Below are positions 24,524-64,000 of a stretch of DNA of 64,000 bases, one piece after another (the stretch's first letter is position 1; each line of letters starts with the position of its first letter). The DNA is taken from NCBI GenBank assembly GCA_000091205.1, contig AP006491.2. One strand, 5' to 3'. The position numbers and the translations under genes are program-made. The notes under the pieces were generated by a model, which saw only the letters and a list, made by a program, of their open reading frames with translations, was not told where the DNA came from and searched no databases. This DNA is from Cyanidioschyzon merolae (lineage: Eukaryota).

Positions 24524-25110
24524 TCACGACCATGGAGGATAAGCTAACACCCACTCGGTGACGCATCCCAGCTTTTTTTGACCGGCCGCCTGCGATCGAT
24601 TTCCGTTTCTCTTTGTATACTTCGAGCTTGAAAGGCTGCCCACGAAGTTACATCGCGTATGCTTCTTGTGTCTCGTTGTAAGTTTAACACATCGTCTGAT
24701 ATTGATAGCAGCGTTAAAGTCTCCATTCACGAGATCCATGAGTTTACTGCCGCTGGTTGAACTCACCAATGAGAGGATTCCTTCAACTCGTGCCCTCTGT
24801 GCCACTTCTATCTCGTCATCGCTCCTTTGGACAAACAACTTTGCTCGCCTATCTCCGCTCTTCTTCTTCTCCTTCATCATTTGCTCTTCTTCGTTCCATG
24901 GCAGGCAAGAAGAGGATTTTTGCATCGTTTGCCTGCAGCCGGCGTTAACGGCGCTCCAGGATCCTCGGCTTCGGTATCCATAATTTTTCCTTGAATTTTT
25001 TATTTTTGAAAACAACCGCACTTCGAATGCATCTGCTATGAACCGCAAAAAGGCATTTGATGACACGTCCCTTGGGATGGAACCCAACTGGGGTGCAAGA
25101 CCGCACACAC
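24524..25110 (-). repeat. Family-B repeat, truncated diverged copy B0 (3' part of the element ORF only)
   Basis: The minus-strand ORF carries '...DDEIEVAQRARVEGILSLVSS...DFNAAINIRRCVKL...'. The core 'gtctcgttgtaagtttaacacatcgtctgatattgatagcagcgttaaagtctcc...actcgtgccctctgtgccac' is homologous to the cores at 30480-30640, 44090-44230 and 63660-63800. Confidence 0.7.
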
Positions 25111-29320: not shown

Positions 29321-29467
29321 CTGGCACGAGTTCAGCGCTCAGGCGTACACCCACATCTCGACCGCGGCATTTAGAGATTACCATCCATAAGCGCCCTGCT
29401 CTGCCGTACATGATTTGTATTCTGGCTGGGTTCGCATATCAACGGCTCGACCTTAGTATCATCAAGC

Positions 29468-30294: not shown

Positions 30295-31850
30295 CTAATA
30301 TTTCTTGCGCAAGGTTGTGCAGGAACAAGACGTAAAAGATTGATCAACGATTCGCTGCCATGGAGCGTAAATATACGCCCACATGCAGACGCCTCCCAGC
30401 CTTTTCGACCGGCCCGCTGGTATCGGTTTCAGCTTCTCCCTGTATACTTCGACCCCGGGAGTTTGCCCCACGAAGTTAGATCGCGTCAGCTGCTTGGGTC
30501 TCGTTTTCAGCACAACATATCGTGTAATATTGGCAGCAGCGTTGAAGTTTCCGGCCACGAACTGCATGCGTTTTTTTGTCGCTTGTTGAACGCATCATTC
30601 CAAGGATTCCTAGCACTCGTGCCCTCTGTGCCACTAAAGTCTCGTTCTCGCGTCGTTGGCCAAACACCATTTCTCACCAGTTGCCCCTCTTCTTCTTCAC
30701 TCTCTCTTCTTTGCTCCATGGTTAGCGATAAGAGGATTTTTCAGTTTTTTCCCGGCACCTTACGATGGCGGCCATCCAGGATCCCCGACTTTCGTATCCA
30801 TGACTTTCCCTTAGATTTTTTATGTTTGGAAATGAACGCACTTTTTCACCCTTAGATGAGGACCTTCCCCGGGAGAGAAGGACCTGTTGTAGGACGACGA
30901 AATATGCCCGGGAGTGTCACCGTGTGCTGAACGCTTCAGCGAGCCACCCAATGGAGCCGTCATTACGTTTCAGGATAGAAACACGCTTTAGATAAGGTTG
31001 AAATGCGTAGAGCACGGAGGAAGGAAAAGCAGCTCTATCATGGTAAAATCCGCAAAAGGTCGCACGCAGGGGGGACTGGTGAAGTGCCATGTTGTCCAGT
31101 AGAAGGACTTTGCTAGGCTTCAGGGGAACGTCTTCAATGGTTGGAAAAACTGGGTTCCATTTTATGAGCCTTTTTGATGAGCGACACTGAGGCCGCCAAA
31201 TATATCCGCTGCAGCAAATACGGATGATGTCCTCATTCTCTTCGAGTCCTATCGTACATTCAACGGGCGCCCTGCTCAGCAAATACCCAAGTGCGCTCCG
31301 GCCGTTTCGTCCAGCGGAAATCTCATCGACTCAAAACAAATCCGGCTTGCCTGTGCTTTTTGTGGATAGCGAAGTTCCAGAAATTCCGTAGTTCCGATTT
31401 CGGTGGAAGGTGACCGTGCGTGAAACGGGACTCTTTTTTCGCGACTGTAACCCAGTGTATTCAGGATCAAACGAAAAAGCAGTTGAGAAACAGAGATCCA
31501 CGTAGGGACTACCATTGTCGATTTTGCTCTCTATATGATGATAAACGGGTGGTTTTCCATCATTGATCGCAAGGATTCTTTGACGGTACCAGTTTTCTGA
31601 TGCGGAGCGCCGGTACTTGTGTTCCTTTAATCTTCCTCAAACATCTGCGTACTGTGGCATGACTGACCCGAATAAGGAATGCAGTCCTCCTTGCACTGTG
31701 CAGTTAAAAACACATATCCTACTAGCAACCCGTCTACGATCTATACGGTACATTGCGAAGTGATTTCGATCTTTTACTTTAGACCGAGGCGGGGAGTTGG
31801 AATAGAATTGAGTTGAAAGTCTACAGCAAGTTAATGCGCGGCGATCATAC
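30295..31850 (-). repeat. Family-B repeat, full-length diverged copy B1 (about 1.55 kb)
   Basis: Homologous along its whole length to 43925-45465, at roughly 65-75% identity. The minus-strand ORF fragments carry 'VAQRARVLGILGMM', 'NFNAAANITRYVVLKTRPKQLTRSNF' and '...ATFCGFYHDRAAFPSSVLYAFQPYLKRV', matching B2 'AAFHSSVLYLIQPHQKNV'. Confidence 0.75.
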
Positions 31851-43924: not shown

Positions 43925-45465
43925 GCGAAAAAGATTCGCAATTGTGTGCGGTAAAAGAATATCCACTCGCAGAAGCTTATTATCCTTTTTTGACCCGCCG
44001 CCTGCAATCGGTTCCAGTTGATTCACGCACACTTCGAGTCTCAGCAGTTGCCGCATAGCGTTGGATCGTGTCAGCTGCTCGGGTCTCGTCTTCAGCACAA
44101 CGCATCGTCTGATATTGGTAGCAGCGTTCAAGTCTCGGCTTACGAGCTCCATGCGTTTACTGCCGATCCCTGATCTCATCACACCGAGGGTTCTTAGTAC
44201 TCGTGCCCTCTGTTCCGCTACAGTCTCGTCATCGTTCCACTCGACAAACACCGTCCCTCGCCTATCTCCTTCTTCTCCTTCTTCGCCACTTGCTCTTCTT
44301 CGCTCGATGGTCGGCGAGAGGAGGCATTTTTCGTTCTGGCTGCGACGAATCCAGCAATGACGGAACTCAGGATCCCCGACTTCCACATCCATACCATTCC
44401 CTTGGATTCTCTGTTTCTTCAAAATCATAGCGATTGTTCATTCGTTTAGGTGAGGACCTTCCCGCAAAAGCTAGGACTCGCGAAAGTAAGACACCATGCG
44501 CCCGTGTGTCAACGTGTGCCGGAAGCTTCAGCGATGACCCCACTGGAGCGACATCATACGTTTCACAATGGAAAACATTCTTTTGATGAGGTTGAATCAA
44601 GTAGAGCACAGAGGAATGAAAAGCAGCACTATACCTCGACAGGATCGGCAAAAGCCCGAACGCAAGGGGAATGGTGAAATGCCACGGTGTCCAGCAGAAG
44701 GACGTCGCCCGACGTCGGGGCGAAATCTTCCATGATTCGATCAAGTGGCTGGTGTTGGTCGATGAGCCTTCTCCACTAGTGAATCTGAGGCCGCAAATAA
44801 AGTCCACTCCGTCTGAAGCAGATGATGACATCCTCGCTCTCTTCGAGCTCGATCGTACATCCAGCGGGTGCACTGTCCGCGAATACCCATTTACGCTCCG
44901 GCCGCCTCGTCCGAAGCAAGTTTCATCGACTGAACAAGCAAACCGACGTCCGTGTCCCGGTCCCTGTGCTCCATACGGATAGTGGCGTTCCACGAACGCT
45001 GAAGTAGCTGTGACCTCGGTGGGAAATGGCCGTGCACGAACTGAGACTTTCTTTTTGCGACTGTACCCCGTGTATTCAGGACCACTCGAACACGCTTTTA
45101 AGGAACAGGGACGCGCGTAGCGACTACTATTTTCGCATTTGTCTTTCGTAAAAGGTGTCAACGGGCCGTTTTCTACCGTTGATCGCGCGCATTCTCTGAG
45201 AATATCGATGTTTGACGCAGAGTGCATCTACTTCTTTCGGTCAGTGTTCGTCAACCATCTGAGTACTGTTGTACGACCGACCTGGAGGAGGAACGCAGTC
45301 CTCCATGCACTGTTCTGTAAAGAATATGTATGGTACAGGCGATTCGCCTACGATCTATCGGGTACATGGCATCGTGATTTCGATATCCTGCTATGCACCG
45401 CTGTGTATATGGGGGAGCGGAGTAGGCGAAGTGGAATTGAGTTGAAAGACTTAAAGCGCGCGTAA
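43925..45465 (-). repeat. Family-B repeat, full-length copy B2 (about 1.5 kb); decayed ORF of about 470 codons split by one frameshift
   Basis: About 99% identical to 57850-59400. Minus-strand ORFs of 286 aa (44367..45227) and 184 aa (43874..44428) overlap out of frame. The C-terminal part reads '...VFVEWNDDETVAEQRARVLRTLGVM...SRDLNAATNIRRCVVLKTRPEQLTRSNA...LEPIAGGGSKK'. Confidence 0.8.
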
Positions 45466-45495
45466 CCTCCGCTCGTTCCGATAAATTGTTGAATC

Positions 45496-46155
45496 TTGTG
45501 GTTGGAGGTCTTCCCGATGGACTCAGGCTTGCTTTCTCTAGCAGATAGGACGCTGTTGCAGACCCTTTTCACGAGAGGTTTTCTACAGAGCGAGGAGGCC
45601 CTGACGTATTATCGGAACTTTCTCGAGGTAACGCAAGGCGAGGAGGTGCAGCCCGCGACACCCAACCTCGCGCAGTTCGAGGCACTTGAACCTGATGTGC
45701 TGGTTTCTCGTCTCAACGGACGTCTCAACGGTGCGGACTTTTCTGTACGTTTGGTCTCAGACGATAAAAGTAAGGCATACCTAACCCTTTGCAACACGAG
45801 AGAGGATGCGTCCTGTAGAGAAGCCTGCCTGTACAGTGCACACGCGAGAGCAGTGTTTGAAGGTATTTTAAAAAAAGGTTTCTTGAACCCGCTTTCCCCT
45901 AGTCACCAGGAAGGCAGCATAACATTCTCGGAATGTGTCAGAATAGCAGAACAGTTACCTGAACACGTGCGCATATCAGGGTTTGAGGCGGAACTCCTTC
46001 AGATTCTCGTGGAGGATGGATGGCTGGAGCGGCTACCGGGTGCTCCAGCGAGCAGAAGTAACAACAAGACGGAGGATTCTTTCCGACCTGGCGTGCGAAC
46101 CTATGCAGAGCTGAGAGAAATGGAGCAATGGAGACTCCGAAGGCTTCAAGGATGA
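45496..46155 (+). CDS. Hypothetical protein, possibly Nse1-like (SMC5/6 complex) N-terminal winged-helix region without a RING domain. Tentative.
   Basis: 'DRTLLQTLFTRGFLQSEEALTYYRNFLEV' resembles human NSMCE1 'HRRFLQLLMTHGVLEEWDVKRLQTHCYKV'. 'AELLQILVEDGWLERLPG...YAELREMEQW' resembles 'QVLQKFVQNKWLIEKEGE...AILEMEQY'. The ORF stops at 46155 and no Cys-rich RING follows. Confidence 0.35.
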   Translation: MWLEVFPMDSGLLSLADRTLLQTLFTRGFLQSEEALTYYRNFLEVTQGEEVQPATPNLAQFEALEPDVLVSRLNGRLNGADFSVRLVSDDKSKAYLTLCNTREDASCREACLYSAHARAVFEGILKKGFLNPLSPSHQEGSITFSECVRIAEQLPEHVRISGFEAELLQILVEDGWLERLPGAPASRSNNKTEDSFRPGVRTYAELREMEQWRLRRLQG

Positions 46156-47174
46156 CCAGATACACGTAACCTGCGTCGAAGCCGGGTTTCCGCAAAATAA
46201 CGCCTCGGGGCTCTCAGCCGGCACTGAATGGCGCCAGATACCAACCACGCGCTTGTTGCTGCAGATTGGTTGTTGTCGCTCGTGCGGTGGTGTTTTCATG
46301 AACTGGGGCGTCTTCGCGCGGTAGCGTATCCCAAATGTTTGTACAATGTGTCTGCAAGCCAGGAAAACGCGTTTTTTGCAACTTATACTGCGTTTTCCAT
46401 ATTTGGTAAAAACGATCATGTGTAGGGCTCAGTGTTCTTCACAGAATATTGGCAATTCACGATGATGATTCTGCCGCCACAAATCCAACAAATATTCTCG
46501 CAAACGACGTGGATCTGTTGATACCAAGCACTACATCCGCGTTGGGCGTAACGGCTCACCGAGCGAATCTCGATCCTACTGACGAAGCTTGTCGCCAAAA
46601 GACCAGCTGCCAAAAGCACGATGCATGAACCTCTGAATTGCCTCCTGAAAAATTCGATGCTTTCTAGACACTGTGCGCATCCAATGGGGGATGCCACATC
46701 AAGAGATTCTTCTGCTGCCAACACAGACTATAGGACGCACTGCGCTCTCCTCTCCACTCAACTTCTCATAGGCTATTGTTTTGACCAATCGCACCTCGCC
46801 CCGCACACTTGCACCATCCAAGAAGCATCCGTCGGTTAATTAGATAGACAAGTCGATCAAAATGACCATGCATGAATCTCTGCTTGTTGGAAAATGTCTT
46901 TCATACTAAAAGAAAACTTCGCGAATTCTGCTAAGACTGCGCTTATTCTGTGAAACAACCCGACTCATCGGTCTGTCATATCTTGGAGTGATCGGCGCTT
47001 TGCTCCTCAAAAGAAAACGCTGCTCGGCGTGAGTCTCGTCGCTTGTCTTCAGACTCGTGCCAGAAATCGCTGAAATACATATCATTCGGTACCGAGCTCA
47101 CAGATAAAAATTATCCAAGTGCCACTTTTTGAATCATTGAAGCTGCTGCTGCTGCTGCACGTCAATCGCTCACT

Positions 47175-48032
47175 CTACGCGAAAAAGAAACCCGATCCGA
47201 GTGATCCCAGTAAGGGATACTGCTGAGCGTTTCGAGGTCTTGGAACAGGTCTATTCTCCTGCGCAGTGCTTCGCGCTGTTCCAGAGATGCTCGAATCCGA
47301 AGGCGGCTGCGTCCTGGCACTGCCGGGGGCGGCTGTTGTGCCGGTGTCCGCATCTTGTGCTGTTCCAGTACTGGAGCCGCTACCTCCCTGGGTCTGTCGC
47401 AGATCCTGGACTACCTCTTCAAGCCGTACGATTTCGTGCTGACACAACGGGCAACGATTCGCCCTCTGAACCCACTTGCTTATGCAATGGGAATGGAACA
47501 AATGACCGCATGAGAGCTTGCGACTCATGTCACCTTTCATAAAAGGATCAAGACAGATTGAACAGCACTGGCAGTAGACGCCGTCGGCTCCACAGAGCCC
47601 TTTGCCCTCACGCTGGCTTTCGTTCGGCACAGTTGCGAGCGCTGCAGCTGCCGCTGGGCTCTCTGCTCCACAGCTTGGACAGCTTGTAAGCGGAGCAGGA
47701 GGAGATGTTTTATCGAGTCTTGCAAGAACGAGCGACGCAGGTATCCGAGTCGGCCCCCAAACGCCGGCTCCTGCTACCCCGCCCGGCGGAGCTCTCTGTT
47801 CTCCACCCGCATTTCCCGGAATGCTGTACAGATACACGCCGTCAACGAAGACAGCTCTCTGGTTCCCCATGCGTGTGGGGTCTTCTGCGTCGCCGACCGC
47901 TCGGTTCGCGGCGCTCTCACGAGTCATAGCCCGGCGCAACGCCCGCCGCTCTCGCACGCAGGCATAGAGCCATGCGGCGAGAAGCAAACAAACACAAACC
48001 GCCGCCACGATTCCGAACACGATTATTGCCAT
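47175..48032 (-). CDS. RING-H2 zinc-finger E3 ubiquitin-ligase-like membrane protein (N-terminal TM helix, C-terminal Ser/Thr-rich tail)
   Basis: N-terminal 'MAIIVFGIVAAVCVCLLLAAWLYACV' is a hydrophobic helix. The RING-H2 reads 'CCSICLDPFMKGDMSRKLSCGHLFHSHCISKWVQRANRCPLCQHEI', a C3H2C3 pattern that includes the conserved Trp. Confidence 0.7.
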   Translation of the reverse strand: MAIIVFGIVAAVCVCLLLAAWLYACVRERRALRRAMTRESAANRAVGDAEDPTRMGNQRAVFVDGVYLYSIPGNAGGEQRAPPGGVAGAGVWGPTRIPASLVLARLDKTSPPAPLTSCPSCGAESPAAAAALATVPNESQREGKGLCGADGVYCQCCSICLDPFMKGDMSRKLSCGHLFHSHCISKWVQRANRCPLCQHEIVRLEEVVQDLRQTQGGSGSSTGTAQDADTGTTAAPGSARTQPPSDSSISGTARSTAQENRPVPRPRNAQQYPLLGSLGSGFFFA

Positions 48033-49244
48033 CCCTCTAGGGGACGTGCCGAAAAAAGCTACCTGGCGGTTGAAGTTCCAAAGTTAAGATAAAAGCGAAA
48101 TTGTGGAAGTAGGGTATCCCAAATTCCATGCGCGTTTTGATTCAACCACACGACGCAGATCGGATGACCAACGGCGCGCTTCACCCGGCGACGCGCGCCG
48201 TGACTCTGGATGAGGGCGGGCTGCGGCCGCAGGACGCAGGACGCATACCCTGTTCACGCGGTCTACGTGCAGGTGCGCGGCATGGTCTGGATCAAATTTG
48301 TTCAGTTATATAAACTTATATACAGTCTACAATTGATTCGCACTCTGGAAGTGCACTGATCTTCGGAAAAGTGGGTCATGCCGAGTGCTCCATTCTTCAG
48401 TTTCTTCGAACACGCTCGGAAGCGCAGGGTCAGCGAGGGTGCGGCAGCAATGCGGCTTCTCGACAGCTTATTGGTGAATGAAGCCACGCACATGGAATAT
48501 GGCATGTTCAAGACTATGGGTGCTGCCTCGGGAAAGGCGAGTTGGGAAAGGATACCACACGCATTGCAGTAGATAACGAATAACGCTGCCGTCGCATGAT
48601 TGAGCAGTGCAGGGCCTTGTGGACGCTCTGCGGTCGATCCAAGGCTAAAGCTTTAGCCGCTGTCGTTTGCTGTTGTTGAATTCTCTCTCCTACGCATCGG
48701 CCTCTGGCTCCGCAGTTGCTGGCCGATCGGGGATATTTCACATGGCTTATTGACTGTAAAATTGTACCAATTCAAAGCGTGCGTCCGTGACGATCTTCAG
48801 TTCACGGCATGCCTCAGAGCGGGGCTCCAGAAAAGCGGTGATTTGATGGGATGCATCGGAACTGTTTTCTTCAGCGCTCGCGTAGGCGATCGAACTATCC
48901 TGAGTGCATCGAGTGAGACGCTGCTTTTTGTAAACGCACAGTGAGCTCTGGAGAGCGTACGTCTCGTGTACAGCCGTTCCCGGTCGTGGAAACCTCCATC
49001 TTCATCTGCTTGCTGCGGGGAGAATTCTCCAAATCCCACGTTCCCGGAAGGTGTCTCGCTTATGCGGGGAATGGATTATAGAGATAATACTTCCTCTGTG
49101 AGGAATATTTCTTCGACTAGGTTAGATCAGGCACAAGGACAAAACTTGTCTCCTGCATAAGATAAGTGCAACGTCTATTTCAATGACTATTATTGTCTCG
49201 CGGATGAGTCATGATGCATTGTCTCCTGCAAAAGTTCGAGAAGC

Positions 49245-50462
49245 GTGCTTCCAAGTGGCGCAGATTTGCATAGCACCGTTAGGTTCGGAAAAGAGCTCAT
49301 CTTTGTTGCTACGGTGAACTGCCGGCATTACCGCCTTGTAGGACTTCAGGGGAAGAGCTTGCGCTGGCCGCACTTACTGCAGAGGTCTTTGGTAAGCAGA
49401 ACATGTTTGACGCTTCGTTGCGGGAACGTTCACAGCTTGGCAGCACTCGCGAGCGACCGGCTCTCGGGGGCCAGTACGCTCCAGGAAATTAGGAAGAGTT
49501 TGTACGTCGCAGGTTCTGGCTTAGAGAAAATGAAACTTATACGCTTACTTCACTTTACGGATATTCATTTTCACTCTGTATCTCTCGCTGGACACCTCCC
49601 CACCTGGAAGGAGCTTCTCGGTTATGCAAACCTGTACATTGCGGGGAGGAGGAAAGCCTTCGCTGCCCTCGAAGCTGCGAAAGCACTCTGTGAACTCGTA
49701 CAAAGTCTAAACCCGGATGTCGTTATTTTTTCGAGTGATCTTACGTCAACGGGTACCTGTGAAGAGTTCGCTACGGCATACGAGCACTTAAGGCCGCTAA
49801 TTGAAAGTAGCAATACTTTTGAGGCAGCGCAAGGTAAAAACAGAAGCACGGCGAGTGGTCCGTTTCTCATCATGGTGGCCGGAAACCATGACGGTTATAC
49901 CCAGTGAAACCGACATTGTATGGAACTGTCCTTTTGAGCTCAGATGCTGGGCGGCGGGGCGGTCTCTCCGCGCTATGTAACGCTCGGAACCGCGAACTCG
50001 AACTTATCCGAATTAAATGATGCTCCCTGCTCGGCATCGCTGGTCGCTATAACGCTGGAGCATTGCAGGCCGTCGTGGCGGAGTAGCGGTAGCCATTACG
50101 TCGAGGGTACGCGTGAACGTCTAGAATCAATTTTAAGCAAACACCATACGCATGCTGTCGTTGTGGGACACTATCCTGTGTTGGAGCAGGACGGAGCAGC
50201 GCTTTACGAAAGGTTCGGGCGCAGTCTATTGGATGTGAGGACGCTTTCGCGAATTCTGTGCAAATATCCTCCGATCGCTTATTTATGTGGCCATCATCAC
50301 GAAGGATACATTGTGAAAGATACTGAGAGCGGCTTTCTACACATTAACTGCGGGTCAAGCGGCAAGATCGGCTCCGGACGCGCGCTGGAGATAATGATCG
50401 GGTCCCATGCTGCAGCTAACAACCTCCAGGTACCTGAGATTGGTTCCTATCCCCATTTGTGA
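49245..50462 (+). CDS. Calcineurin-like metallophosphoesterase, one gene interrupted at 49905-49943 by in-frame stop codons (possible short intron or pseudogene)
   Basis: ORF 49245..49907 carries metallophosphoesterase motifs 'IRLLHFTDIHFHSV' (D-x-H), 'VVIFSSDLTSTG' (GD-type) and 'MVAGNHDGYTQ' (GNH[DE]). ORF 49944..50462 is in the same frame and carries the downstream 'LCGHHHEGYIV' (GH-x-H) motif. The two halves are separated by 36 nt that contain two TGA codons. Confidence 0.6.
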
Positions 50463-50590
50463 ATATTCACGTGCGCTTTTGGTTGCAGTATACAGTGTGC
50501 AAGTTCGAAACAAAAAGAAAGGGAGCAAATTTCATGTACAAGAGTCCAGGCGGTGAATGACAGCCCTCGGTGCGGATCTGTCATATCTCG

Positions 50591-51805
50591 TCAGAGCCTA
50601 TCAAGAAGTTGCGAAATCTGCTCATAACACATGAATGTAATCGCCGATGAAGGTGCCACACGAAGAAGATTCGCGACAATGCCTCTGTAAAGCCCCCGGA
50701 AGCTATTTCGCATGTAGATTGTACGCAACGCACGAATCATACTCCCGTACGCGACCGGATCTGCGCCGCGCTGCTGCATGCGTGTGCGAGCAACCTGCAA
50801 TGGGTACGTGACAAGCGAGGCTATAACTTTGGAAGCGGTAGCTGCAATCAGACTTTCAATGACGCTCAGCCGTTCTGCTTGTCCTGCTGAGTTCCGAAGT
50901 GAAATAGAATCCAAAGATCGTTCCAGCTCGTTCTCAAGTTCTTCCGAACGGCTCAGCTTTGCCATGAAGCGCCTTCGAAGCAGAGACAATCGGATTTTCT
51001 CGTACACAGCGAACTGGATTGCACCGTGCGTCACAAGAAACATCGAGGGCCCAATGCCGCGATAGAAGCCCCTGAGTCCTTCATCTCTCCAGACAGATTG
51101 CATCGTCGAGAATACACCCCCCTGGTTTTGAGATAACTGAGCACCTTTGAAGTTGTCTTTCGAGCCCCTCTCCAGCTGCATACGTGTTTTCAAGAGCCAT
51201 ATGGGATTCGTCAAGAGTACGGTTATGATGCCGGCAATTGTGCCGGATATAAGATGGTTGATGCTGCCTCTTTGGGACAAGTACTCACTTTTAACACGTT
51301 GTCCCAGAAGAGCTACTAGCATTTTCGCTCGTTGGTAGCTTTCAAAATAGATTCCCCAGGAAAGCGAGGAACCTACAACGGCGGGAAGGGCACCTCTGTA
51401 GAGGCCATTTCGGAGACCTTCCTCCCGCACTATTGTTGCTACCGCGTTCGTAATAGTTCGATACGAAAAAGCACCTTGCTTTCCGTGCAAATCGGTCGCC
51501 TGATAGCGCGTCTTTATCAGGTCAAAAGGATGCAAGGCAAGAGTGCTCAAGCAACCAGCGCTCAGCCCCGCGATAGCGCGAGTCACACCAGCTCGGGGCT
51601 GCGCACCTGCACCCGTGCCCTTGTCCTCTGAGGAACCGCTCGGTGCGCCAGTGATGCGTGCGCTTGGTTCTCTTTGAGCCACATACCCCTGAAGAGCCTC
51701 AACGCTGCCCCTCACGCGTGCTGGCGGTGCAAGGCGTTCAGCCTCAGCCTGGTAATCGAGCAGAGGATCAGGTGGACCCCGAAGACCGTCCGTCATACGG
51801 CGCAC
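50591..51805 (-). CDS. Mitochondrial carrier family protein of the folate/FAD/NAD+ transporter subgroup (Flx1/MFT/Ndt-like)
   Basis: Three carrier repeats with signature helices 'LHPFDLIKTRYQ', 'TNPIWLLKTRMQL' and 'TYPLQVARTRMQQR'. In the second signature a Trp replaces the usual acidic residue (P-I-W), which is characteristic of the folate/FAD/NAD+ carrier clade. Confidence 0.85.
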   Translation of the reverse strand: MRRMTDGLRGPPDPLLDYQAEAERLAPPARVRGSVEALQGYVAQREPSARITGAPSGSSEDKGTGAGAQPRAGVTRAIAGLSAGCLSTLALHPFDLIKTRYQATDLHGKQGAFSYRTITNAVATIVREEGLRNGLYRGALPAVVGSSLSWGIYFESYQRAKMLVALLGQRVKSEYLSQRGSINHLISGTIAGIITVLLTNPIWLLKTRMQLERGSKDNFKGAQLSQNQGGVFSTMQSVWRDEGLRGFYRGIGPSMFLVTHGAIQFAVYEKIRLSLLRRRFMAKLSRSEELENELERSLDSISLRNSAGQAERLSVIESLIAATASKVIASLVTYPLQVARTRMQQRGADPVAYGSMIRALRTIYMRNSFRGLYRGIVANLLRVAPSSAITFMCYEQISQLLDRL

Positions 51806-52381
51806 ATGAAACCCTACCTTGTGTCAAACTTTTAACCAAGTCTCAAACTGAGCTTCTCGAAACCACCGGAAACTTTGCCGTTCTCATCACTGACTGGAGG
51901 TCCTTTTCAAGCCGTGGAACCTCCGCTGCGGAACTCAAATTTTTCTCATCGCACACCGCCTGTTTCAACGAGTTTTGCACATTTTCCAGAAGCCTGTAGC
52001 AGCGCGAGCGCAAATGTACTTCACATGCGCTTTTGTTTGATGCATAGCGATACAAGCGCGGTACCGGTGACTATCGAATACAAACGGGTTTCTCTCCTAT
52101 GCGACAGATACCACGTTACATGCCACGGAAACATCACGAGCGCTCGTAAGAGTGGTTGCGATGCGTCTGCATGGCCGAGCACGAAAATGATTATTCGCAT
52201 AGGGAAGTACCCCTAGGTAAAAATTTCGATCAAATGTGATAAATGCATCAAGGATGAGCAGTTTCAGCCACAAGGGTACGTTTCAGTCATGCACACTTTA
52301 CCTTTCAAGTTGAAAATACGTTCCATATAGATCTGTCCATGCCAAGATAACTCTTCCACTTTTAGAGCTATTCCCCGTCGC

Positions 52382-52918
52382 TCAACTAGTTCCGTATAAT
52401 ACCGCACCGTGTAAACTCGGAGGAATCAGAACTCCGTTAATGATGTGTATGACACCGAGGTCGAAGAAAACGTCCGGCACTATAACCTTCCGTGTTCCTT
52501 CGACGTAAATCGTTGTCCTTGTAGCGTTCAACATGAGGGTTTCGTTGTCGAACAGCGTTTTCACTAAAATAACCCCTTCGCCGAGTAAAAAGTGCGCCGA
52601 GAGGTTCCCAGGCACGATGTGGTAGAGCAAGACGTCCCTCAAAAGGGTCTCGTTCGTATGAAGCCTCGCGGTGACATTCGCCGGCAAGCTTTCGAAAGCT
52701 GTATTATCTGGAGCGAAAACGGTTATTGTTCTGTTCGCAGCAGCTAGAGCGCTTAGCTGAGTCGAGAGCGTGCTGTTCACGAGGGTTATGAGCGTGCTGA
52801 TATCGGGATGCTCACGTTCGACCTCACTTAACGTCTGTGCCTCAATTCTAACTGCATGTATGAGCGAGAGAATACAAAATAGTCCGAATAAAACCCTTAC
52901 GACCTTCATCTCTTTCAC
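52382..52918 (-). CDS. Secreted fasciclin (FAS1) domain protein with an N-terminal signal peptide
   Basis: Hydrophobic N-terminus 'MKEMKVVRVLFGLFCILSLIHA'. FAS1 motifs 'TVFAPDNTAFESLP', 'LLYHIVPG' and 'VIHIINGVLIPP'. Several N-glycosylation sequons (N-x-T/S). Confidence 0.75.
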   Translation of the reverse strand: MKEMKVVRVLFGLFCILSLIHAVRIEAQTLSEVEREHPDISTLITLVNSTLSTQLSALAAANRTITVFAPDNTAFESLPANVTARLHTNETLLRDVLLYHIVPGNLSAHFLLGEGVILVKTLFDNETLMLNATRTTIYVEGTRKVIVPDVFFDLGVIHIINGVLIPPSLHGAVLYGTS

Positions 52919-53115
52919 GCAACACTCTCCCTCGGAGTCACACAGTGGTTACAGAAACAAAATTTTGTGTGGAGGAGAAAATACCCGATCGCATCCGCGT
53001 GTCCTTCACCTGCTCGTCGGGTATTCTGTCACGTGACATTCCGAACAGCCGCGAATCGAGCGAGCGCCGGTGTCGCCCGGTCTACGACGACGACGGGTTT
53101 CTTTGAGTACCGTTC

Positions 53116-54738
53116 ATGAGGCGAGCTACCCCCCTTTTCATCGTAGGTGGGTGTCACCTGCATTTCCCCTCGTGCAACAGCACCGCGTTTCGTCCACTTT
53201 TTCTAAGCAAGCGTTATGGCCAGGAACGTTCGTGGACGAAGACAGGCCTCTGGCGCCTTGCACCGACGCACCAAAGAGGTCAGCGCAGCTCCGTCGCTTC
53301 CATTCACCGGAGAAGTCACGGGAAACTAGTGGCCGCGAACCTGGCTATGGCCGTAGAATCAGAACGACTCGGATCGGAGGGATCGAGGGTGTCACTAAGA
53401 ATCAAGGTCGACGGTGAGAGTACGCGGGCTGCAGTAGACTCGGTGTTGCAGGAGCTCGAGAAAACCGCGACTGTCCCGGGGTTTCGGAAAGGCAAGGTTC
53501 CGAAAAACGTTCTCGTGAGCTACTTTGGAGAGAAGAATATTAATGCCTCAGCGCTGGAAGAGGTGGTCAACGAGAACGTGAAGGTCGCTCTACAAGATGC
53601 AGGCATTCCGTATTTAGGAAACGCCACGTTAATTGAGAAACCAGAGGACGTAGTTGCGCGTTTTGTTCCTGGAGAGCCGCTCTCCTTTGATATCAGCGTT
53701 GAGGTATGGCCCGAGGCGAAGTTGAAAGAGTCTTACAAGAGCACGGAAATCGTCGTTGCGCGACTGCCAGATGATGATCTAGAGGAACTCGTCGAGCGAA
53801 CGCTCGAGGATCTCCGAAAGCGAACCGCACAGCTCCGGGATGTACCGGGTGGTACTATTGATTACGGATACACTGCCATCGCATCCATTCGATGCTATCG
53901 AATGCTTCCGAATGGTAAGCGAGGGGAGCGTATTCGTGGGGTGGCAGCCGAAGATGATGTCCAGGTCCCGATCGAGAAAGGACGCTTCCTGGAGGGCTTC
54001 GTTGAGGGCCTCATTGGCGCTAAAGTCGGCGAAGTGCTACAGATCCCCATACGGTTTCCGGAGAATCACAAAGTGAAGAAGTTAGCGGGGAAATCTGTAG
54101 TATTTGAAGTGAAAATCCACGCTGTCAAGGAGCGGGTGCTTCCAGAGGTGACGGATGAGTGGGTGCGGCAGGTCACAGAGCAGGAAAATGTCGAGAAATT
54201 GAAGGACGTTTTGCGCGCAAAACTAGTGGAAGAGAAAGAGGTAATGCGCGAGCGGAACATGGATCGAGCGATTGAAGACTTTATTTTAAGCATTACTGAA
54301 GTGGATTTACCTGAATCTTTAATTGAAGAGCAGATCAAACGGCAGTTCGCGGAGCTGATGACTGAGCTGAAAAATCAAGGAGTGCCAGATCACAAAATCA
54401 AGGCTATGATTACGAAGGAGAACTACGAACGCTACCGAACTGGACCTGCGAGAGGAACTGCGGAGAGGAGCCTCCGCATCGGTTTCGGTGTTTCCAAAAT
54501 CGTGGAGTCTGAGGGTCTCAAGCTCGACGACTCCGAACTCGAGAGGCGTCTGCAAGAGGAGCGAAAATTGGCTGGTGCTGAAGACTTTGACGAGAAACCT
54601 GTTCGTGACCGCCTCGTTGCTATTATGGAGCGTGAACTGGTCTTTGACTTTATCAGGAAGAATTGCAACTTCAAATTTATCAGCTCCTCTGTGGAAGACG
54701 AGAGCAGACGATCCGTGCCGGCGCAGCTCGCCGCCTGA
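53116..54738 (+). CDS. TIG: Trigger factor (Tig-type ribosome-associated chaperone / PPIase), plastid-type, with an N-terminal transit-peptide-like extension of about 100 aa
   Basis: The hallmark trigger-factor ribosome-binding signature 'PGFRKGKVP' (GFRxGxxP) is in the N-domain. A central FKBP-like block ('GEVLQIPIRFPENH...GKSVVFEVKIHAVK') and a helical C-domain follow. The size, about 430 aa after the extension, fits Tig. Confidence 0.85.
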   Translation: MRRATPLFIVGGCHLHFPSCNSTAFRPLFLSKRYGQERSWTKTGLWRLAPTHQRGQRSSVASIHRRSHGKLVAANLAMAVESERLGSEGSRVSLRIKVDGESTRAAVDSVLQELEKTATVPGFRKGKVPKNVLVSYFGEKNINASALEEVVNENVKVALQDAGIPYLGNATLIEKPEDVVARFVPGEPLSFDISVEVWPEAKLKESYKSTEIVVARLPDDDLEELVERTLEDLRKRTAQLRDVPGGTIDYGYTAIASIRCYRMLPNGKRGERIRGVAAEDDVQVPIEKGRFLEGFVEGLIGAKVGEVLQIPIRFPENHKVKKLAGKSVVFEVKIHAVKERVLPEVTDEWVRQVTEQENVEKLKDVLRAKLVEEKEVMRERNMDRAIEDFILSITEVDLPESLIEEQIKRQFAELMTELKNQGVPDHKIKAMITKENYERYRTGPARGTAERSLRIGFGVSKIVESEGLKLDDSELERRLQEERKLAGAEDFDEKPVRDRLVAIMERELVFDFIRKNCNFKFISSSVEDESRRSVPAQLAA

Positions 54739-54889
54739 ACCAATAGGCCCTTGTCCATGGGACCCAGATAAATGACTTTATGAGAAAGTTAGCACTATCT
54801 ACAAGCAACGAAGCCGCGTTCAAATGATAGCCACCAGTCTCGATCGACATCTCTGTCCAGTACCATGCCCTTTCCACCTACCAGATGAA

Positions 54890-54965
54890 GACTGAATCCT
54901 GAACAGCTCGCTCTCGTCCTGCATTTCGATTTTTTCCAAACATGTTTTAGTTTTAAAGCCTCTAC
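54890..54965. repeat. Degenerate fragment resembling the family-A left terminus
   Basis: 'cagctcgctctcgtcctgcatttcgattttttccaaacatgttttagttttaaagcctctacattcagaatgcagg' aligns with the A terminus 'cagctcgctctggtccttcatctcgatatttctccgaac...ttttagatgtgtcgcagcgggattcaatgtgcagcagg'. Confidence 0.4.
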
Positions 54966-57292
54966 ATTCAGAATGCAGGACCAAGCGCTGACCAATTCAT
55001 ACTTTGCTTCAGGCTTTACGCTCTTATTTTAGGAGCGACTCTTTCAACTCCCTGCCGCTAGAATTCGATAGGTCTCAAAAATCAAAAAGATTCGGCACGC
55101 GCTGGAGAAAGAAGTTATGAAAATGTCGATGCAATTATCCAATGCATCCACACCTGCCTCCTTTGGTGTCCGTTCCTAAAATGCAGCATGCCAGAATCAA
55201 GCATTTTTCAAGTTTTCGATTTTTCAGTCTCAGCGCATCTCGTAGTGGCAGCGAGTAGCGCAGCTAGGTTCACGAGGAACAATATGAAATCGAAGTTGGC
55301 CATTGATGTTTACTCCACTAGTGCATGCTAGAAGTGCTCTGAACTTCTCACGTCATATAACCGGTTCTTTTCGTAGTACAACTTACCTCTACTTGTGGAT
55401 ATCGACGAAAGGCGCTTACTTGCAGCATGATACCTTTTAGGGAATTTGCTTTCAAAAGATCCCGCTGCGTTTCTTTGATAGGAAATCGTCATGGACTTGG
55501 ACATAAATCGCTGCAGGCATCAATTCCAGCTACGAAAGCTTCGCAGAATCACACGAAGTTATCGTAGACGCCTCGAAATTCTTGATGGTACCTCCAGCAC
55601 GGATTTTTCTTCCGGTAATCGTTTCATCATGAACAACCTCGCTTTCCTCGGATCCAATCCTGTTCGGAAAAGAGAAGAGAAGGCAACAGAGTATGGCTCG
55701 TATCATATGCTCTACCTTATTCTCAATCGTTCAGCCGGGTCTAAAAACCTCATCAGTGCTGTGAAAGAAAGCAAATGTTCAGCAAACGTGTGGAACAGCG
55801 TGCGCTTCCGCGTGCAACGCACGGGGTACTCGTCGACGGAATTGGCGAGAAGATACCCGTGATCGCACGTTACGGCCCTGGGTGAGCAAACAAAGCAGGG
55901 CATCGGTGCCCGCATACGGTAACCTTCAAGAACATGTGCCGAGCAATGAAGCAAACGTTCACGTGCCAAAGAGCGGCTCCCGAATGACCAGGAGATATGT
56001 TGGAAATCTGGGCACACTTGATCACGTCCGTGTCGCAACTGCAAAGCGCGCCGATACTGTATACAAAAAAGATGAATGTGGGGAGCCATCCGTAGATCGC
56101 AAATTCCGTCTGTGCGTGAAATGCGTAGGCAAAGACCGGAAGAAACGAAATCGGCGCTGAAACGATGCCATCAACATCACTCGACTGCTGACAACGGAGC
56201 TGGAGGGACCGAAATGACTGACTTATCGAGAGTCAGAGACAAGGCAATGGAAAAGAAACCAGTCGCAGAAAAAGATCGCAAAAGCTAATCCTCGTGAAAA
56301 GGGGAAGAGATCCAAACCTTTAAATTCCACACCCGGGCTAGATGACGCGTTCGATTTTATTGTGACATGGGTTTATAGAGCGCTCTGGAGCATCGCCACC
56401 GACTTCAAAATGATCTCAGCCTCGCCATCTGTTGTTCGTATCCAAAAATGCACAGCATCGTGAGCAATGCAGTTGTACGAGCTGCGTGATTCAATTGCCA
56501 TCGCGATACAAAATGATAGAAACCTCGTTTCACGTGCAGCCTTGAAATTAGTAGAGAGGCATAGCCGACAAACCGCTCACGGAGAAAATACTTCCAGCCA
56601 AGTCGCCATGAACGCGGGCGCCACGACACGATGCTGCCAGGAGATGTTGTCTTCACGAATTCAGAAACCAGGCCAATGCTTTCAGCAGTTGACTCACAGG
56701 AAAGAACAGTTGGCCACGGGCCAATAAACGGTGAAACCTGTAGCGATGCGCGCGACTCTGTGAGCAGTCGCCGTAAAGGTTTCGGTCGCCCAACCTCGGG
56801 GTTCGCTCTCTGCGACTTTGCCTATTTGTTCGAATGCCGCCAAGCAGATGATCATACGCACTCAGGTCGACCTGATACAGTGCGACGCACTGTACACGCC
56901 AACCTAATGGTCTCAAACTCGGGATAGGAACACCAATGTTCTCTGAGGTAAACTTCCACCGGGTAATTGCCATCTGAGGAGCCAAAGGTTATGATATTTT
57001 GTATTTGCTTTTTCGAATGATCCGTAAAGACAATTCGGTTGGCAGCTGTGCCACTGAACAAGACGTCAGCTACATGGCAAAGCGTGATGTGTGGCGCAAA
57101 TGACGGCTAACTTGAGGTGATCGGTACTGACACCTCCACAGGTATTCTCTGCGCTCGTTAATGCGCCCTGTCAGAAGCAAAATGCCAGACTAAAGGACCA
57201 TAATTCATGAAAAGTTCTAACAATTACGAAAAGTTTTCTATGATACACTCTTATGCGTCGATCCGCAGCTTGAACAGCTGCCGCGGTGCGGG

Positions 57293-57736
57293 TCACGGGT
57301 GGTCATCGTCCTTGGATGCAATAGAAGCTTTTCTCAAGCTTTCCTCATACGCTGCGAGCTTCTCAGCATACGCAACCCATACACAGGTCTCACAGCCGTT
57401 ACCGCAACAATCGTAAGGTCCTGGCTCTTCTGGAGGTTGCAAGACTGAAGCGGCTTGCACGCCAGGAGAGGCTTCTTTCATAGATTCCGCCTTACCGGAC
57501 TTCTCGCCGTCGCGTGCTTCTGTCACACTACCCAGTGTGCTGAGGCCTTGGTTTACACGAGCGGGGATTGACGGCCGAGAAACGAGAGCTTCTGCGACAG
57601 TGCCTTCTGTTCCACGGCCTTCTTGCTCAGCTCGCGGTTCAACGCTCGTAGCACTTGACAATTCACGGACGTGCGAAGTAAGCAACGCTCGTTGAGCACA
57701 ATTTCGGTGACTTGGAGCGAAGTTTCCAGTACGCAT
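57293..57736 (-). CDS. Oxidoreductase-like-domain protein (OXLD1-like; Pfam Oxidored-like N-terminal motif)
   Basis: 'PPEEPGPYDCCGNGCETCVWVAYAEKLAAYEE' matches the 'PPxxP...CCxSGCxxCVWxxY' signature of the Oxidored-like domain. Confidence 0.5.
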   Translation of the reverse strand: MRTGNFAPSHRNCAQRALLTSHVRELSSATSVEPRAEQEGRGTEGTVAEALVSRPSIPARVNQGLSTLGSVTEARDGEKSGKAESMKEASPGVQAASVLQPPEEPGPYDCCGNGCETCVWVAYAEKLAAYEESLRKASIASKDDDHP

Positions 57737-57849
57737 ATTCTGAAGCGCTAAGCTTACGAAGGGTGCGCAGCCTTCGAGTCACTGCCGGAATGAGATCCCT
57801 CGAGCCGTCAGTGTTTTCGTCGTCTGAGGTCTTTATTAGAATCTATATA

Positions 57850-59400
57850 TATTCAGTAAAACAAAAAACGTTCTATGACCATTGAGGGTCAATACATATA
57901 CCCACATGCGGACGCCTCCCAGCCTTTTTTGACCCGCCGCCTGCAATCGGTTCCAGTTGATTCACGCACACTTCGAGCCTCAGCAGTTGCCACATAGCGT
58001 TGGATCGTGTCAGCTGCTCGGGTCTCGTCTTCAGCACAACGCATCGTCTGATATTGGTAGCAGCGTTCAAGTCTCGGCTTACGAGCTCCATGCGTTTACT
58101 GCCGATCCCTGATCTCATCACACCGAGGGTTCTTAGTACTCGTGCCCTCTGTTCCGCTACAGTCTCGTCATCGTTCCACTCGACAAACACCGTCCCTCGC
58201 CTATCTCCTTCTTCTCCTTCTTCGCCACTTGCTCTTCTTCGCTCGATGGTCGGCGAGAGGAGGCATTTTTCGTTCTGGCTGCGTCGAATCCAGCAATGAC
58301 GGAACTCAGGATCCCCGACTTCCACATCCATACCATTCCCTTGGATTCTCTGTTTCTTCAAAATCATAGCGATTGTTCATTCGTTTAGGTGAGGACCTTC
58401 CCGCAAAAGCTAGGACTCGCGAAAGTAAGACACCATGCGCCCGTGTGTCAACGTGTGCCGGAAGCTTCAGCGATGACCCCACTGGAGCGACATCATACGT
58501 TTCACAATGGAAAACATTCTTTTGATGAGGTTGAATCAAGTAGAGCACAGAGGAATGAAAAGCAGCACTATACCTCGACAGGATCGGCAAAAGCCCGAAC
58601 GCAAGGGGAATGGTGAAATGCCACGGTGTCCAGCAGAAGGACGTCGCCCGACGTCGGGGCGAAATCTTCCATGATTCGATCAAGTGGCTGCTGTTGGTCG
58701 ATGAGCCTTCTCCACTAGTGAATCTGAGGCCGCAAATAAAGTCCACTCCGTCTGGAGCAGATGATGACATCCTCGCTCTCTTCGAGCTCGATCGTACATC
58801 CAGCGGGTGCACTGTCCGCGAATACCCATTTACGCTCCGGCCGCCTCGTCCGAAGCAAGTTTCATCGACTGAACAAGCAAACCGACGTCCGTGTCCCGGT
58901 CCCTGTGCTCCATACGGATAGTGGCGTTCCACGAACGCTGAAGTAGCTGTGACCTCGGTGGGAAATGGCCGTGCACGAACTGAGACTTTCTTTTTGCGAC
59001 TGTACCCCGTGTATTCAGGACCACTCGAACACGCTTTTAAGGAACAGGGACGCGCGTAGCGACTACTATTTTCGCATTTGTCTTTCGTAAAAGGTGGTCA
59101 GCGGGCCGTTTTCTACCGTTGATCGCGCGCATTCTCTGAGAATATCGATGTTTGACGCAGAGTGCATCTACTTCTTTCGGTCAGTGTTCGTCAACCATCT
59201 GAGTACTGTTGTACGACCGACCTGGAGGAGGAACGCAGTCCTCCATGCACTGTTCAGGAAAGAATATGTATCGCACAGGCGATTCGCCTACGATCTATCG
59301 GGTACATGGCATCGTGATTTCTAGCTGCTATGATTGCCCGCAGCGGGCGTGCAAAACATTGATTTGAAAGACTAAAAAATCGAAATCGCCGGTCTGGTTT
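57850..59400 (-). repeat. Family-B repeat, full-length copy B3 (near-identical to B2)
   Basis: About 99% identical to 43925-45465. The minus-strand ORFs 57873..58367 and 58306..58932 correspond to those of B2, with additional disabling changes. Confidence 0.8.
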
Positions 59401-60839
59401 TTGCGCGCGCCCCCAGGAATAAATTCTATCGCGTTTGAAATTTATACATTTCCCACGTTCAGTACTCATCGCAATGGCTCTAGCGAAGCACGTGATACAC
59501 GCAGGGGCCAATAACTGGCTGGCATCATGAGTAAGACTGCTCCAATTTCTTTTTTTGGCAAATGAAGAATTCCGACGGACTGCCCTGTACGGAACGATAA
59601 TTGATTCGCTTTCCTACCACGGTGTCAGATTCATAAAGAGAACACTTAACTGCTTTCTCTGTGGCCGTCGTTCGATTTGCTTCTGAACTTTTGTTCAGAC
59701 GTACAGCTTCGGCATTCGAAGCGCATCAGTAATGTTCTACGAACTCATAGGTATGTTGGAGATTCCGGGTCCTCGTTTCTGAGCACTCCTTCGACTCTTT
59801 GGTGCTGAACGTCGTGGACATCACGGTCAGCGAGACGTCGACGACGACCCCGGACGCTGCTTCTGGGAGCAACCGGTATCAGCAGCCAGTTTCTAAACCT
59901 TGGTCGAATATTCCTCAAATACGAGGGCGCCGAGGCGAAGATAGGCCTGCCGCCTGCGAGCGAGCCCGGCGTGAGTCTCAGACGTCTTGGCCGCATCGTC
60001 GCTAATAAACAGTACATGCGGGCTCGACACCCACGAGTTGGCAAGGTGTCTCGATTCGCGTCAAGCTCATCGGCACTTTTTGTGCGAAGAATTGGCAGAA
60101 AAACGAAGAGCGGGCAAGGAGGCGGGGTCCGAGTACTCGAATCCGACAGCGCGCACACAAATGTGCAGCGAACAGAGTACTCGCTGAGGAAATCACCCGG
60201 GAGAGGCCTGTGATCATTGGGCATGGCGCAGCGCGCGGAAACGGAGGACGGCATCGGGCGGAGCCTTCTGGAACGGTAAAGCGCATGTACCGAGGGATGG
60301 TTCAAGCGTTTACGCGCCACACAGTGGCGCTCAGAGGCGGTGGAGGACTGGTGGATGCACATGGGAACACCTGACCAGGTCCAAGTGTAACGGGTGGGGA
60401 GTGCACCCCGAGGCCGTACAGAAAGAGGATGCAAATGGTAAACGAAGCTCAGATCGTGACTCGCGCCAGTGCATAAAACGGGTCTACAACAGCGAGAAGC
60501 CGCGAAACAGAGACTTCAACGCTACGATCAGTATCCTTCGGCTGGTGACCATGGGGCTGGAGAGACATGAGCAACCGGCGTATTCAAAGCCAGAGGCGAG
60601 AGGGGAAATGGAAGCGATAGCGGTAAAAGCCCGCCAAGGCCGTCGTTTGCGGTAACGGTGAGTGGCACGAACTTTCGAGTATATGCCTGAGATACGTAAT
60701 TAGACCTGTTGCATTTAAGTCTGACGTAGGTCCAGGCGGATCTCCACCGGCTGCCCCAACTTGAATTACTCTACAGATCTTGCGCTATCTGCAACAGCGA
60801 ATAAATGGAGACCCCAGCGCCGCACCCATACAATGTGCT

Positions 60840-63504: not shown

Positions 63505-64000
63505 TGCTCAGTAAAACAAAATATGGTGTACGACCATACAGTAACTGCGTATACCCACTCGCAGAAGCCAGACAGCAAAACTACCGGCCTCTTGTTATCG
63601 TTTCAGTTAATCCAGGCAAACTTCGAGCCTGAGACATCTCCACGAATTTGGATCGCGCCAGCTCCTCGGGTCTCGTCTGCAGAATCGCTTATCGTCCGAT
63701 ACTGATGGCGGCGTTGAAGTCTCGGTTCAAAAGCTTCTTGCACGTATTGACGCTGTTGAACTCACCAATGCAAAGATTCCTCGAACTCGTGCCCTCCGTG
63801 CCACCATAGTCTCGTCATCGTCCTGTCGGGCAAACACCATTTCTCGCATACCTCCCCATTGTTGTTCTCCTTCGTCATACGCTCTTCTTCGATCGATGAT
63901 ACACAATGAGGGGATTTTTCGTTTTGGTTTTGTCGAACCCGGCGATGACGGCTTTTCGAGATCCTCGACGTCCATGTCCGTACCCTTCCCTTGGATCTTT
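63505..64000 (-). repeat. Family-B repeat, diverged copy B4 (3' part; runs off the right edge of the window)
   Basis: The minus-strand ORF reads '...MVFARQDDDETMVARRARVRGIFALVSS...'. It has the conserved core 'ctcgggtctcgtctgcagaatcgcttatcgtccgatactgatggcggcgttgaagtctcgg...actcgtgccctccgtgccacc' and the shared terminus 'cagtaaaacaaaata...cgtatacccactcgcagaagcc'. Confidence 0.7.

Follow-up and report, generated by a model that had tools for sequence, protein, structure and literature searches.

Near-identical Fanzor1-derived repeats flanking a gene block on Cyanidioschyzon merolae chromosome 9 are probably old insertions homogenised by ectopic gene conversion

The window analysed here, a 64,000-nt stretch of chromosome 9 of Cyanidioschyzon merolae 10D, is dense in dead Fanzor1 derivatives belonging to at least two families, and between these relics lie cellular genes. 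Two copies of one such family, which we call family B, have the same orientation and lie at a distance of 13.9 kb from each other; these copies, B2 and B3, bracket a 12.4-kb block of genes (Table 1). Pfam together with the NCBI names for C. merolae 10D identifies in this block an SMC_Nse1 gene, a RING finger protein, a metallophosphoesterase (in two ORFs), an SLC25 mitochondrial carrier of the folate type, a fasciclin-domain protein, a trigger factor and the Oxidored-like protein CMI149C (CYME_CMI149C), which bears out all seven of the ordinary cellular genes that the initial annotation had placed in the interval. Proteins of the window are found as exact matches in the C. merolae 10D chromosome 9 records BAM80021-BAM80032. 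The gene block looks essential, and in the assemblies retrieved it is neither deleted nor duplicated. Further family-B copies in the window are considerably more diverged, with self-BLAST identities to B2/B3 of 71% for B1 (aligned part 30346-31767), 73-78% for B0 (24490-25023) and 73% for B5 (63597-63996), in keeping with the divergence of about 30% first estimated for them.

Table 1. Family-B copies, their parts and the gene block between B2 and B3; positions are those of the 64,000-nt window.
Feature	Position	Strand	Remarks
B0, old 5'-truncated family-B copy	24490..25103	-	194-aa ORF with GDFNAAINIRRC
B1, old full-length family-B copy	30346..31822	-	71% identical to B2/B3; ORF broken
B2, family-B element	43926..45451	-	own older-type termini around a probably converted interior
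B2 mini-Fanzor ORF, 184 aa	43874-44428		C-terminus unlike that of B3
B2 counterpart of the Fanzor1 C-terminal remnant	43961-44236		
99% identity tract in B2	43984..45395	.	self-BLAST and identity windows
B2 counterpart of the ORF-start remnant	44293-44427		
B2 right terminal motif ATTGAGTTGAAAGACT	45436-45451		
Block of cellular genes, 12.4 kb	45452..57845	.	Pfam and NCBI names for C. merolae 10D
B3, complete family-B element	57846..59373	- (Fanzor-sense)	ends from copy alignments
B3 3' terminus TATTCAGTAAAAC	57850-57862	read on +	homology begins at 57846
"Mini-Fanzor" remnant ORF of B3, 164 aa, across the deletion junction	57873..58367	-	
Fanzor1 C-terminal remnant (~90-95 codons, RuvC-III ...SRDLNAATNIRRC...), then 3' region	57900..58176 (aligned to CMe-1A over 58176-57894)	-	CMe-1A 2812-3101
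99% identity tract in B3 (probable conversion tract)	57923..59332	.	solid up to 59321
Fanzor ORF-start remnant (MDVEVGDPE...)	58232..58367	-	CMe-1A ~876-1003
~1-kb 5' region of B3	58368..59357	-	many stops
Strain-polymorphic segment, B3 right end	59322..59622	.	10D compared with environmental contigs
B3 5' terminal motif ATTGATTTGAAAGACT	59358-59373		common to B1, B2, B3, Y, L021
B5, old family-B copy, cut by the window end	63508..64000	-	ORF broken

The arrangement of the two repeats around the gene block is reproduced outside the reference genome. The 31.6-kb metagenome contig Ga0080006_1126386, which covers window positions 38664-51192 and 54253-64000, matches the reference at 99.5-99.8% identity and has B2, the block and B3 in unchanged order, and a separate 18-kb contig (L014) runs through B2 and into the flank on either side. 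A further ten contigs, 12.5-13.0 kb long and each from a different JGI, ENA or Logan sample or run, extend from inside B2 (ends at 45112-45352) to inside B3 (ends at 57909-58113), breaking where the copies become indistinguishable, and at both the right junction of B2 and the left junction of B3 all ten are normal. Searching metagenome contigs for a 34-nt pattern taken from the right end of the core gave 11 stretches. Recurrence in independent environmental assemblies means that the arrangement is not a misassembly, and the collapse or misjoin that had been named in advance as capable of undermining the observation is contradicted by these contigs. We consider it very improbable that the repeat pair arose either in this way or by tandem segmental duplication of a B-containing segment. 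The two direct repeats, 13.9 kb from one another, could mark the edges of such a duplication; however, the stretch at 59.4-64 kb, on the right of B3, shows no similarity to the block, and the element interior alone is repeated. A collapse or misjoin is further opposed by the recurrence of all four junctions and of the full B2-block-B3 span in independent assemblies, and by the 11 sites and 3 indels at which the two copies differ within distinct flanks. No allele with the 45.5-57.8 kb interval deleted or duplicated was found among the 31.6-kb contig and the ten contigs of ~12.5-13 kb, the short-read contigs breaking in the repeat, so that rare variants may have gone unseen. As direct repeats, B2 and B3 are a plausible substrate for unequal recombination.

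The near-identity of the two copies is confined to a sharply delimited tract. Self-BLAST of the window aligned the direct repeats over 1413 nt with 98.94% identity (11 mismatches and 3 gap openings), so that the identity of about 99% and the direct orientation reported at the outset both stand. When identity was followed in 50-nt windows, an unbroken plateau of 92-100%, chiefly 98-100%, was observed, with a fall to ~30-50% within ~50 nt at both edges; the identity is thus continuous with abrupt limits, and not patchy as had been raised as a possible objection. The four fixed, locus-specific differences between B2 and B3 are confined to positions 59256-59274, at the tract edge. The limits originally given for the two copies lie near those of the element at the level of the family (~43926-45451 and 57846/57850-59373) and exceed the 99% tract by ~60-70 nt on each side. 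The tract therefore ends inside both elements, and beyond both of its edges family-B sequence carries on in register.

Functional Fanzor nucleases possess a split RuvC domain (RuvC-I D, RuvC-II E and RuvC-III D) within an open frame of ~600-730 aa. By homology, family B is identified as Fanzor1/TnpB-derived sequence, and its organisation is that of a ~1.5-kb, internally deleted and non-autonomous relative of the C. merolae Fanzor1 element CMe-1A. A functional nuclease gene of the kind just described is lacking in family B, the longest ORFs measuring 164-184 aa in B2 and B3, and its elements cannot encode a nuclease. Both blastn and nhmmer align B with CMe-1A in two collinear blocks, and in the nhmmer comparison of B3 with the CMe-1A consensus the C-terminal block reached E = 5.3e-26 and the weaker ORF-start block 1.7e-3. 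Since the ORF-start and C-terminal pieces abut in B, the ORF has lost ~1.8 kb, RuvC-I and RuvC-II with it: the portion of the CMe-1A consensus that holds these two motifs (~1004-2810) is absent, and only RuvC-III (RDLNAATNI) is left. The corresponding minus-strand C-terminal peptide, ...RARV...(R/G)D(L/F)NAA(T/I)NIRRC..., is present in every B copy. The mini-ORFs that cross the deletion junction in B2 and B3 differ at their C-termini because the tract stops at ...GGGSKK. In the 5' region of B3, no protein or CMe-1A homology was detected with HMM, tblastn or nhmmer searches. An alternative description of B as the 5'-truncated C-terminal half of a gene was dropped, the 5' part having given only weak, non-collinear matches by HMM and tblastn; internal deletion is preferred over 5' truncation because nhmmer returned no match upstream of the ORF start.

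The Fanzor homology becomes visible only through profiles and the published CMe-1A consensus, because direct ORF searches were empty: neither the B ORFs nor single metagenome homologues gave a significant match in Pfam or PDB, and an exact-sequence look-up of the B2 and B3 junction ORFs returned no record. At the profile level, the C-terminal ORFs of B match CMe-1-type proteins with E = 2e-22. The hits of a profile of the B ORFs were all short unnamed metagenome proteins, the longer of them bearing VVGADPW, VVAYG, IDEFR(S/T)SY and NRDFNAAIN, and a profile of those proteins in turn retrieved 993 proteins, of which many are 600-700 aa long. A profile built from 30 of the full-length relatives matched Parasitella parasitica Fanzor 1 (PDB 9cf0) with E = 2.2e-17, in an alignment that spans the RuvC motifs DPGR, DEFRT and NRDxNAAxN. 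The Pfam family Cas12f1-like_TNB recurred among sub-threshold matches (best E = 5.6e-5), and the published CMe-1 protein (supplement of PMC3627910) matches the metagenome relatives collected with the B profiles. For the C-terminal remnant, dN/dS was 0.59 between B3 and B0 and 0.31-0.35 in comparison with CMe-1A, ratios that show inherited constraint only and give no clear sign that the mini-ORF is maintained.

Comparison with described elements places family B close to known members of the Fanzor1 group. CMe-1A is a C. merolae Fanzor1 family of ~150 copies with a ~3.2-kb consensus, without terminal inverted repeats and with a target-site duplication that could not be determined, and the same survey described TE-N2_CMe as a short derivative of CMe-1A in C. 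merolae (Bao & Jurka 2013, PMC3627910). Family B shares with CMe-1A its host genome, a remnant ORF that matches the CMe-1 protein group (E = 2e-22, as above) and the absence of terminal inverted repeats, and it shares with TE-N2_CMe its shortness and its non-autonomous character. It differs from CMe-1A by ~33% DNA divergence in the common parts, by the deletion of ~1.8 kb of ORF, and by a ~1-kb 5' region and a 5' terminal motif without detectable similarity to the 5' region of CMe-1A. The lack of terminal inverted repeats was also evident quantitatively, in that end complementarity did not rise above that of shuffled controls in B3, B1, copy Y or CMe-1A (z of at most 1.2). Fanzor1 can also be borne by a Tc1/mariner DNA transposon with terminal inverted repeats, as exemplified by SPu-1, and from such carriers family B is set apart by having no such repeats. 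Fanzor "ghost loci" are ORF-less sequences of ~550 nt that keep the terminal repeats, including 30-nt inverted repeats, and the ωRNA region (Saito et al. 2023, PMC10432273). Family B resembles these loci in being short and non-autonomous and in keeping the Fanzor 3'-terminal region without a functional nuclease gene, but it is larger (~1.5 kb), has no inverted repeats and carries a fusion ORF of N-terminal and C-terminal pieces.

The ends of the elements could be delimited with the help of additional copies from metagenome contigs, namely X (L001-L006), Y (L012, L017, L018), L013 and L021. Copy X, a third near-identical copy, adjoins Methyltransf_16, DER1 and P5CR genes. The left end of B3 was set by alignment with X (L001), B0, B5 and L013, the copies to which a left terminal region of ~80 nt is common. 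At the opposite end, the terminal motif ATTGAKTTGAAAGWCT recurs in B3, in B2 and in B1 (31807-31822 in the latter; Table 1 for the others) as well as in Y and L021, and between this motif and the conserved core lies a spacer of 36-60 nt that differs from copy to copy. The outermost left terminus of B2 has decayed, and because ~25 nt there are unrecognisable, its description as a complete old element is less secure at the left end than at the right. Several copies have flanks that would fit TA at either end, with element boundaries that are ambiguous, and in the sequences compared neither an empty site nor a target-site duplication was found for the B2 and B3 insertions.

These termini are where B2 and B3 part company. 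The two copies are only 54% identical in the left 83 nt and 58% identical in the right terminal segment, compared with 99% in the core, and so lack at their ends the interior-level identity expected of a pair produced by recent duplication or transposition. Instead, the left terminal segment of B2 matches Y (26/32, z = 9.5) and B5 (17/18, z = 6.6) and shows no match to B3 (z = 0.1), and its right segment finds its best match in B1 (z = 8.6). A fresh insertion or duplication would have left the two copies with shared termini, which they do not have, and we therefore do not regard the pair as the product of such an event. Of the "very recent duplication or transposition" that the initial annotation had proposed, the recency survives, as recency of sequence exchange; the type of event finds no support, given a tract that lies inside the elements between termini as dissimilar as these.

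The possibility that a young B subfamily, mobilised in trans, inserted independently at B2, B3 and X with sloppy processing of its ends deserves consideration and is in our judgement unlikely. The core is also found at other loci, X (L001-L006), L013 and L021, where it is 97-99% identical, and at least four loci with such a core are what a transposition burst would look like. Moreover, L013, L021 and the environmental B3 have one identical right terminus, for which reason genuine recent insertion of a single master element may lie behind some copies. The right end of B3 is itself polymorphic among strains: environmental strains have 83 nt with the other terminus type (X-type), identical to that of the L021 copy, at the place where 10D has 301 nt (59322-59622) made up of its own terminus and ~250 nt of flank. 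On the left, the termini of X, L013 and L021 are unlike those of B3 in their outer ~45 nt; on the right, they differ from B3 over the whole terminal region. Independent recent insertion is nonetheless difficult to reconcile with the 10D copies B2 and B3, which agree at neither terminus, and with the sequence outside the tract, which is an older-type family-B terminus in register. An insertion placed exactly at the homologous position within an existing copy would amount to homologous replacement, which is gene conversion, and the presence of strain-specific alleles at both loci requires exchange after insertion.

Such alleles were identified both within the tract and at its edge. The two 10D copies have in common a 1-nt deletion at 58208 and an A at 58303, a state that none of the environmental copies, at four loci, shows and that the outgroups B1 and Y lack too, with the 10D-specific changes being read from one finished genome. 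In the Ga0080006 contig, B2 and B3 vary together at positions 58615 and 58787, possibly as an effect of assembly. At the right edge of the tract, the environmental B2-junction contigs L023, L025 and L026 carry B3 alleles at 59256/59258 and B2 alleles at 59272/59274, and L022, L024, L014 and L019 are B2-like at all four edge sites. These sites fall within 19 nt, and if the k141_ in the record name of L023 denotes an assembly with k = 141, each k-mer would span all four of them. Metagenome contigs may be chimeric or consensus-collapsed inside repeats, and the odd left flank of L013 is possibly an assembly effect. As judged from the distribution of alleles, the comparison shows an exchange between copies that appears to have gone on after the strains diverged.

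We consider it probable that B2 and B3 are old, dead insertions whose interiors have been homogenised by recurrent ectopic gene conversion, and that they are not recent insertions. The limits of the tract, the old and diverged termini, the allele patterns and the recurrence of the core between different ends at other loci are the reasons why conversion between old insertions fits the data better. Concerted evolution of dispersed repeats by ectopic conversion is known for duplicated genes and for transposon copies in yeast and other eukaryotes. The B2/B3 pair has the features of such systems, namely a high-identity tract set in collinear, diverged homologous flanks, derived alleles shared within a lineage (as seen in one reference genome) and tract ends that vary between haplotypes. 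Nothing in the comparison with these systems is unusual, and what is particular to the present case is only the use of Fanzor1 relics as substrates in a very compact haploid genome.

In mechanistic terms, a double-strand break or gap in one copy would be repaired by homologous recombination templated by the other copy, or by a third copy elsewhere, and this would replace ~1.4 kb of interior and leave the diverged 50-85 nt at the ends of each copy as they were; the direction of conversion is one that we infer. Such conversion would be recurrent and still under way, as concerted evolution within a network that includes copies at other loci. Only non-crossover outcomes would be expected to persist, as a crossover would delete Nse1, the folate carrier and the trigger factor in a haploid cell, a loss that is probably selected against. 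Homologous recombination in C. merolae is efficient enough to be used for routine gene targeting (PMC3764038). Selection that keeps the core identical was also considered and rejected, as stops and frameshifts are numerous in the core and the divergence of B1 and Y from it has reached ~29%.

A more specific version of events would have the conversions triggered by an intact CMe-1 Fanzor1 acting with an ωRNA encoded by the element, in the manner of TnpB for IS200/IS605; we regard this as highly doubtful. Several observations are in its favour. The part of the element that usually supplies the guide RNA, the 3' end of the ORF with the 3' terminus (PMC10432273), is retained in B; this 3' region is the best-conserved DNA across the B copies and CMe-1A; and C. 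merolae has intact CMe-1 proteins (PMC3627910). TnpB-driven homing is documented in bacteria, where homing and retention of IS200/IS605 require an active nuclease, a guide RNA and a donor-joint target (PMC10055086; Meers et al.). The outcome of that process would look much like what is seen here, with break-induced recombination placing a copy of element sequence at a homologous site, but the B copies themselves are without RuvC-I and RuvC-II. RNAalifold on seven sequences of the 3' region gave no covariation support for a conserved RNA fold, with a covariation term of +2.08 (unfavourable) and compensatory change in 4 of 47 pairs, and no guide-target relation was identified. Known guides, furthermore, target sequence that flanks the element and not the interiors of other copies, and ordinary ectopic conversion accounts for all of the data. 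Equally slight is the chance that the core represents a "mini-Fanzor" cassette, made up of the ORF start joined to the RuvC-III tail together with the 3' guide-RNA region, which has spread among old B copies through homology-directed replacement under stimulation in trans by an intact CMe-1 Fanzor1. If a nuclease did stimulate these conversions, it would be the first hint of a role for a Fanzor nuclease in its native host, and the cassette, if real, would be a eukaryotic counterpart of TnpB homing on non-autonomous "ghost" elements.

In summary, both the type of element and the process favoured here, ectopic gene conversion between old insertions, are already known, and the significance of the locus lies in how copies of this kind are to be read. 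Near-identical transposon copies in C. merolae are not to be taken as evidence of recent transposition: identity between copies misleads on their age because recombination homogenises the interiors while the ends keep the true age. This affects the dating of Fanzor-element activity in C. merolae by copy divergence. If B2 and B3 are the products of recurrent conversion, as we think probable, ectopic conversion would be at work in natural populations of a nominally asexual, haploid alga.

Family A repeats, like the internally deleted family-B elements, are by sequence homology Fanzor1-derived. The repeats share 97-99% mutual identity and match positions 102-212 of the profile of CMe-1, the protein group of the published C. 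merolae Fanzor1 element CMe-1A, as well as positions 2652-2965 of the CMe-1A consensus. Their catalytic motifs are degenerate, with IDEP where IDEF is expected and RRPLNASIDIRNC. Families A and B together account for approximately ten Fanzor relics within the 64-kb window. The window also holds an isolated CMe-1A-like fragment, whose homology is to the opening ~180 nt of that consensus, a stretch common to the short derivative TE-N2_CMe. A small ORF containing NRDFNATISI just right of B3 may be one more remnant of a Fanzor C-terminus, lying in the opposite orientation, a reading that comes from a weak match of 16 aa (E = 8e-4) in one comparison.

Features of the window discussed here
Feature	Position	Strand	Remarks
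Family A copy	5559-7423	+	repeat, Fanzor1-derived
Family A copy	18798-20699	+	repeat, Fanzor1-derived
Family A copy	27417-29176	-	repeat, Fanzor1-derived
Family A copy	37966-38909	-	repeat, Fanzor1-derived
CMe-1A-like fragment	8600-8784	-	isolated; nhmmer E = 1.7e-11
ORF with NRDFNATISI	60401-60655	+	
Inverted repeat	60492-60535 / 63698-63741		one arm within ORF 60401-60655
Fusion ORF, B0	24524-25108	-	Fanzor N-terminus + RuvC-III tail
Fusion ORF, B2	43874-44428	-	Fanzor N-terminus + RuvC-III tail
Fusion ORF, B3	57873-58367	-	Fanzor N-terminus + RuvC-III tail
Metallophosphoesterase ORF 1	49245-49907	+	220 aa
Metallophosphoesterase ORF 2	49944-50462	+	172 aa
Repeat pair	14639-15392 / 35550-36300		98.4% identity
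Repeat pair	28621-29321 / 36178-36874		89% identity
Short tandem repeat	16608-16779		period ~67 nt; units ~90% identical

Within family B, the fusion ORF spanning the deletion junction is intact in B0, B2, B3, the environmental metagenome copy X and numerous metagenome gene calls, and is disrupted in B1, B5 and the metagenome copy Y. Its dN/dS between B3 and B0 is 0.59, and there is no clear evidence that the ORF has been maintained.

At the right end of B3, strain 10D carries 301 nt (59322-59622) consisting of its own terminal motif and ~250 nt, in place of which two environmental contigs, L011 and L013, carry 83 nt. The terminus within this 83-nt segment is identical to that of another metagenome copy, L021, and the polymorphism suggests a recombination or repair event that extended beyond the element end. 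In contig L013 (JGI24721J26819_10036655, positions 1-491), an unassigned left flank and an X-type left terminus are connected to the young core and the right flank of B3, an order that reflects either a genuine inter-copy rearrangement or an assembly chimera through the repeat.

Among the cellular genes bracketed by B2 and B3, the metallophosphoesterase is encoded as two neighbouring ORFs, and the same split is present in 10D and all environmental contigs. The Pfam Metallophos match covers the first ORF only, not the second; the split could represent a frameshifted pseudogene, a rare C. merolae intron or two genes.

No terminal inverted repeats were found within any single element. Positions 7-30 at the 5' end of the CMe-1A consensus (AAAACGTTTACATTGACCATGGA) correspond in inverted form to the family-B 3' terminus, with matches at 24516-24536 and 57864-57885 (z = 5.8 and 3.8), which hints at a subterminal motif common to both families in opposite orientations. 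As for the near-identity of the family A repeats, gene conversion may be its source as well.
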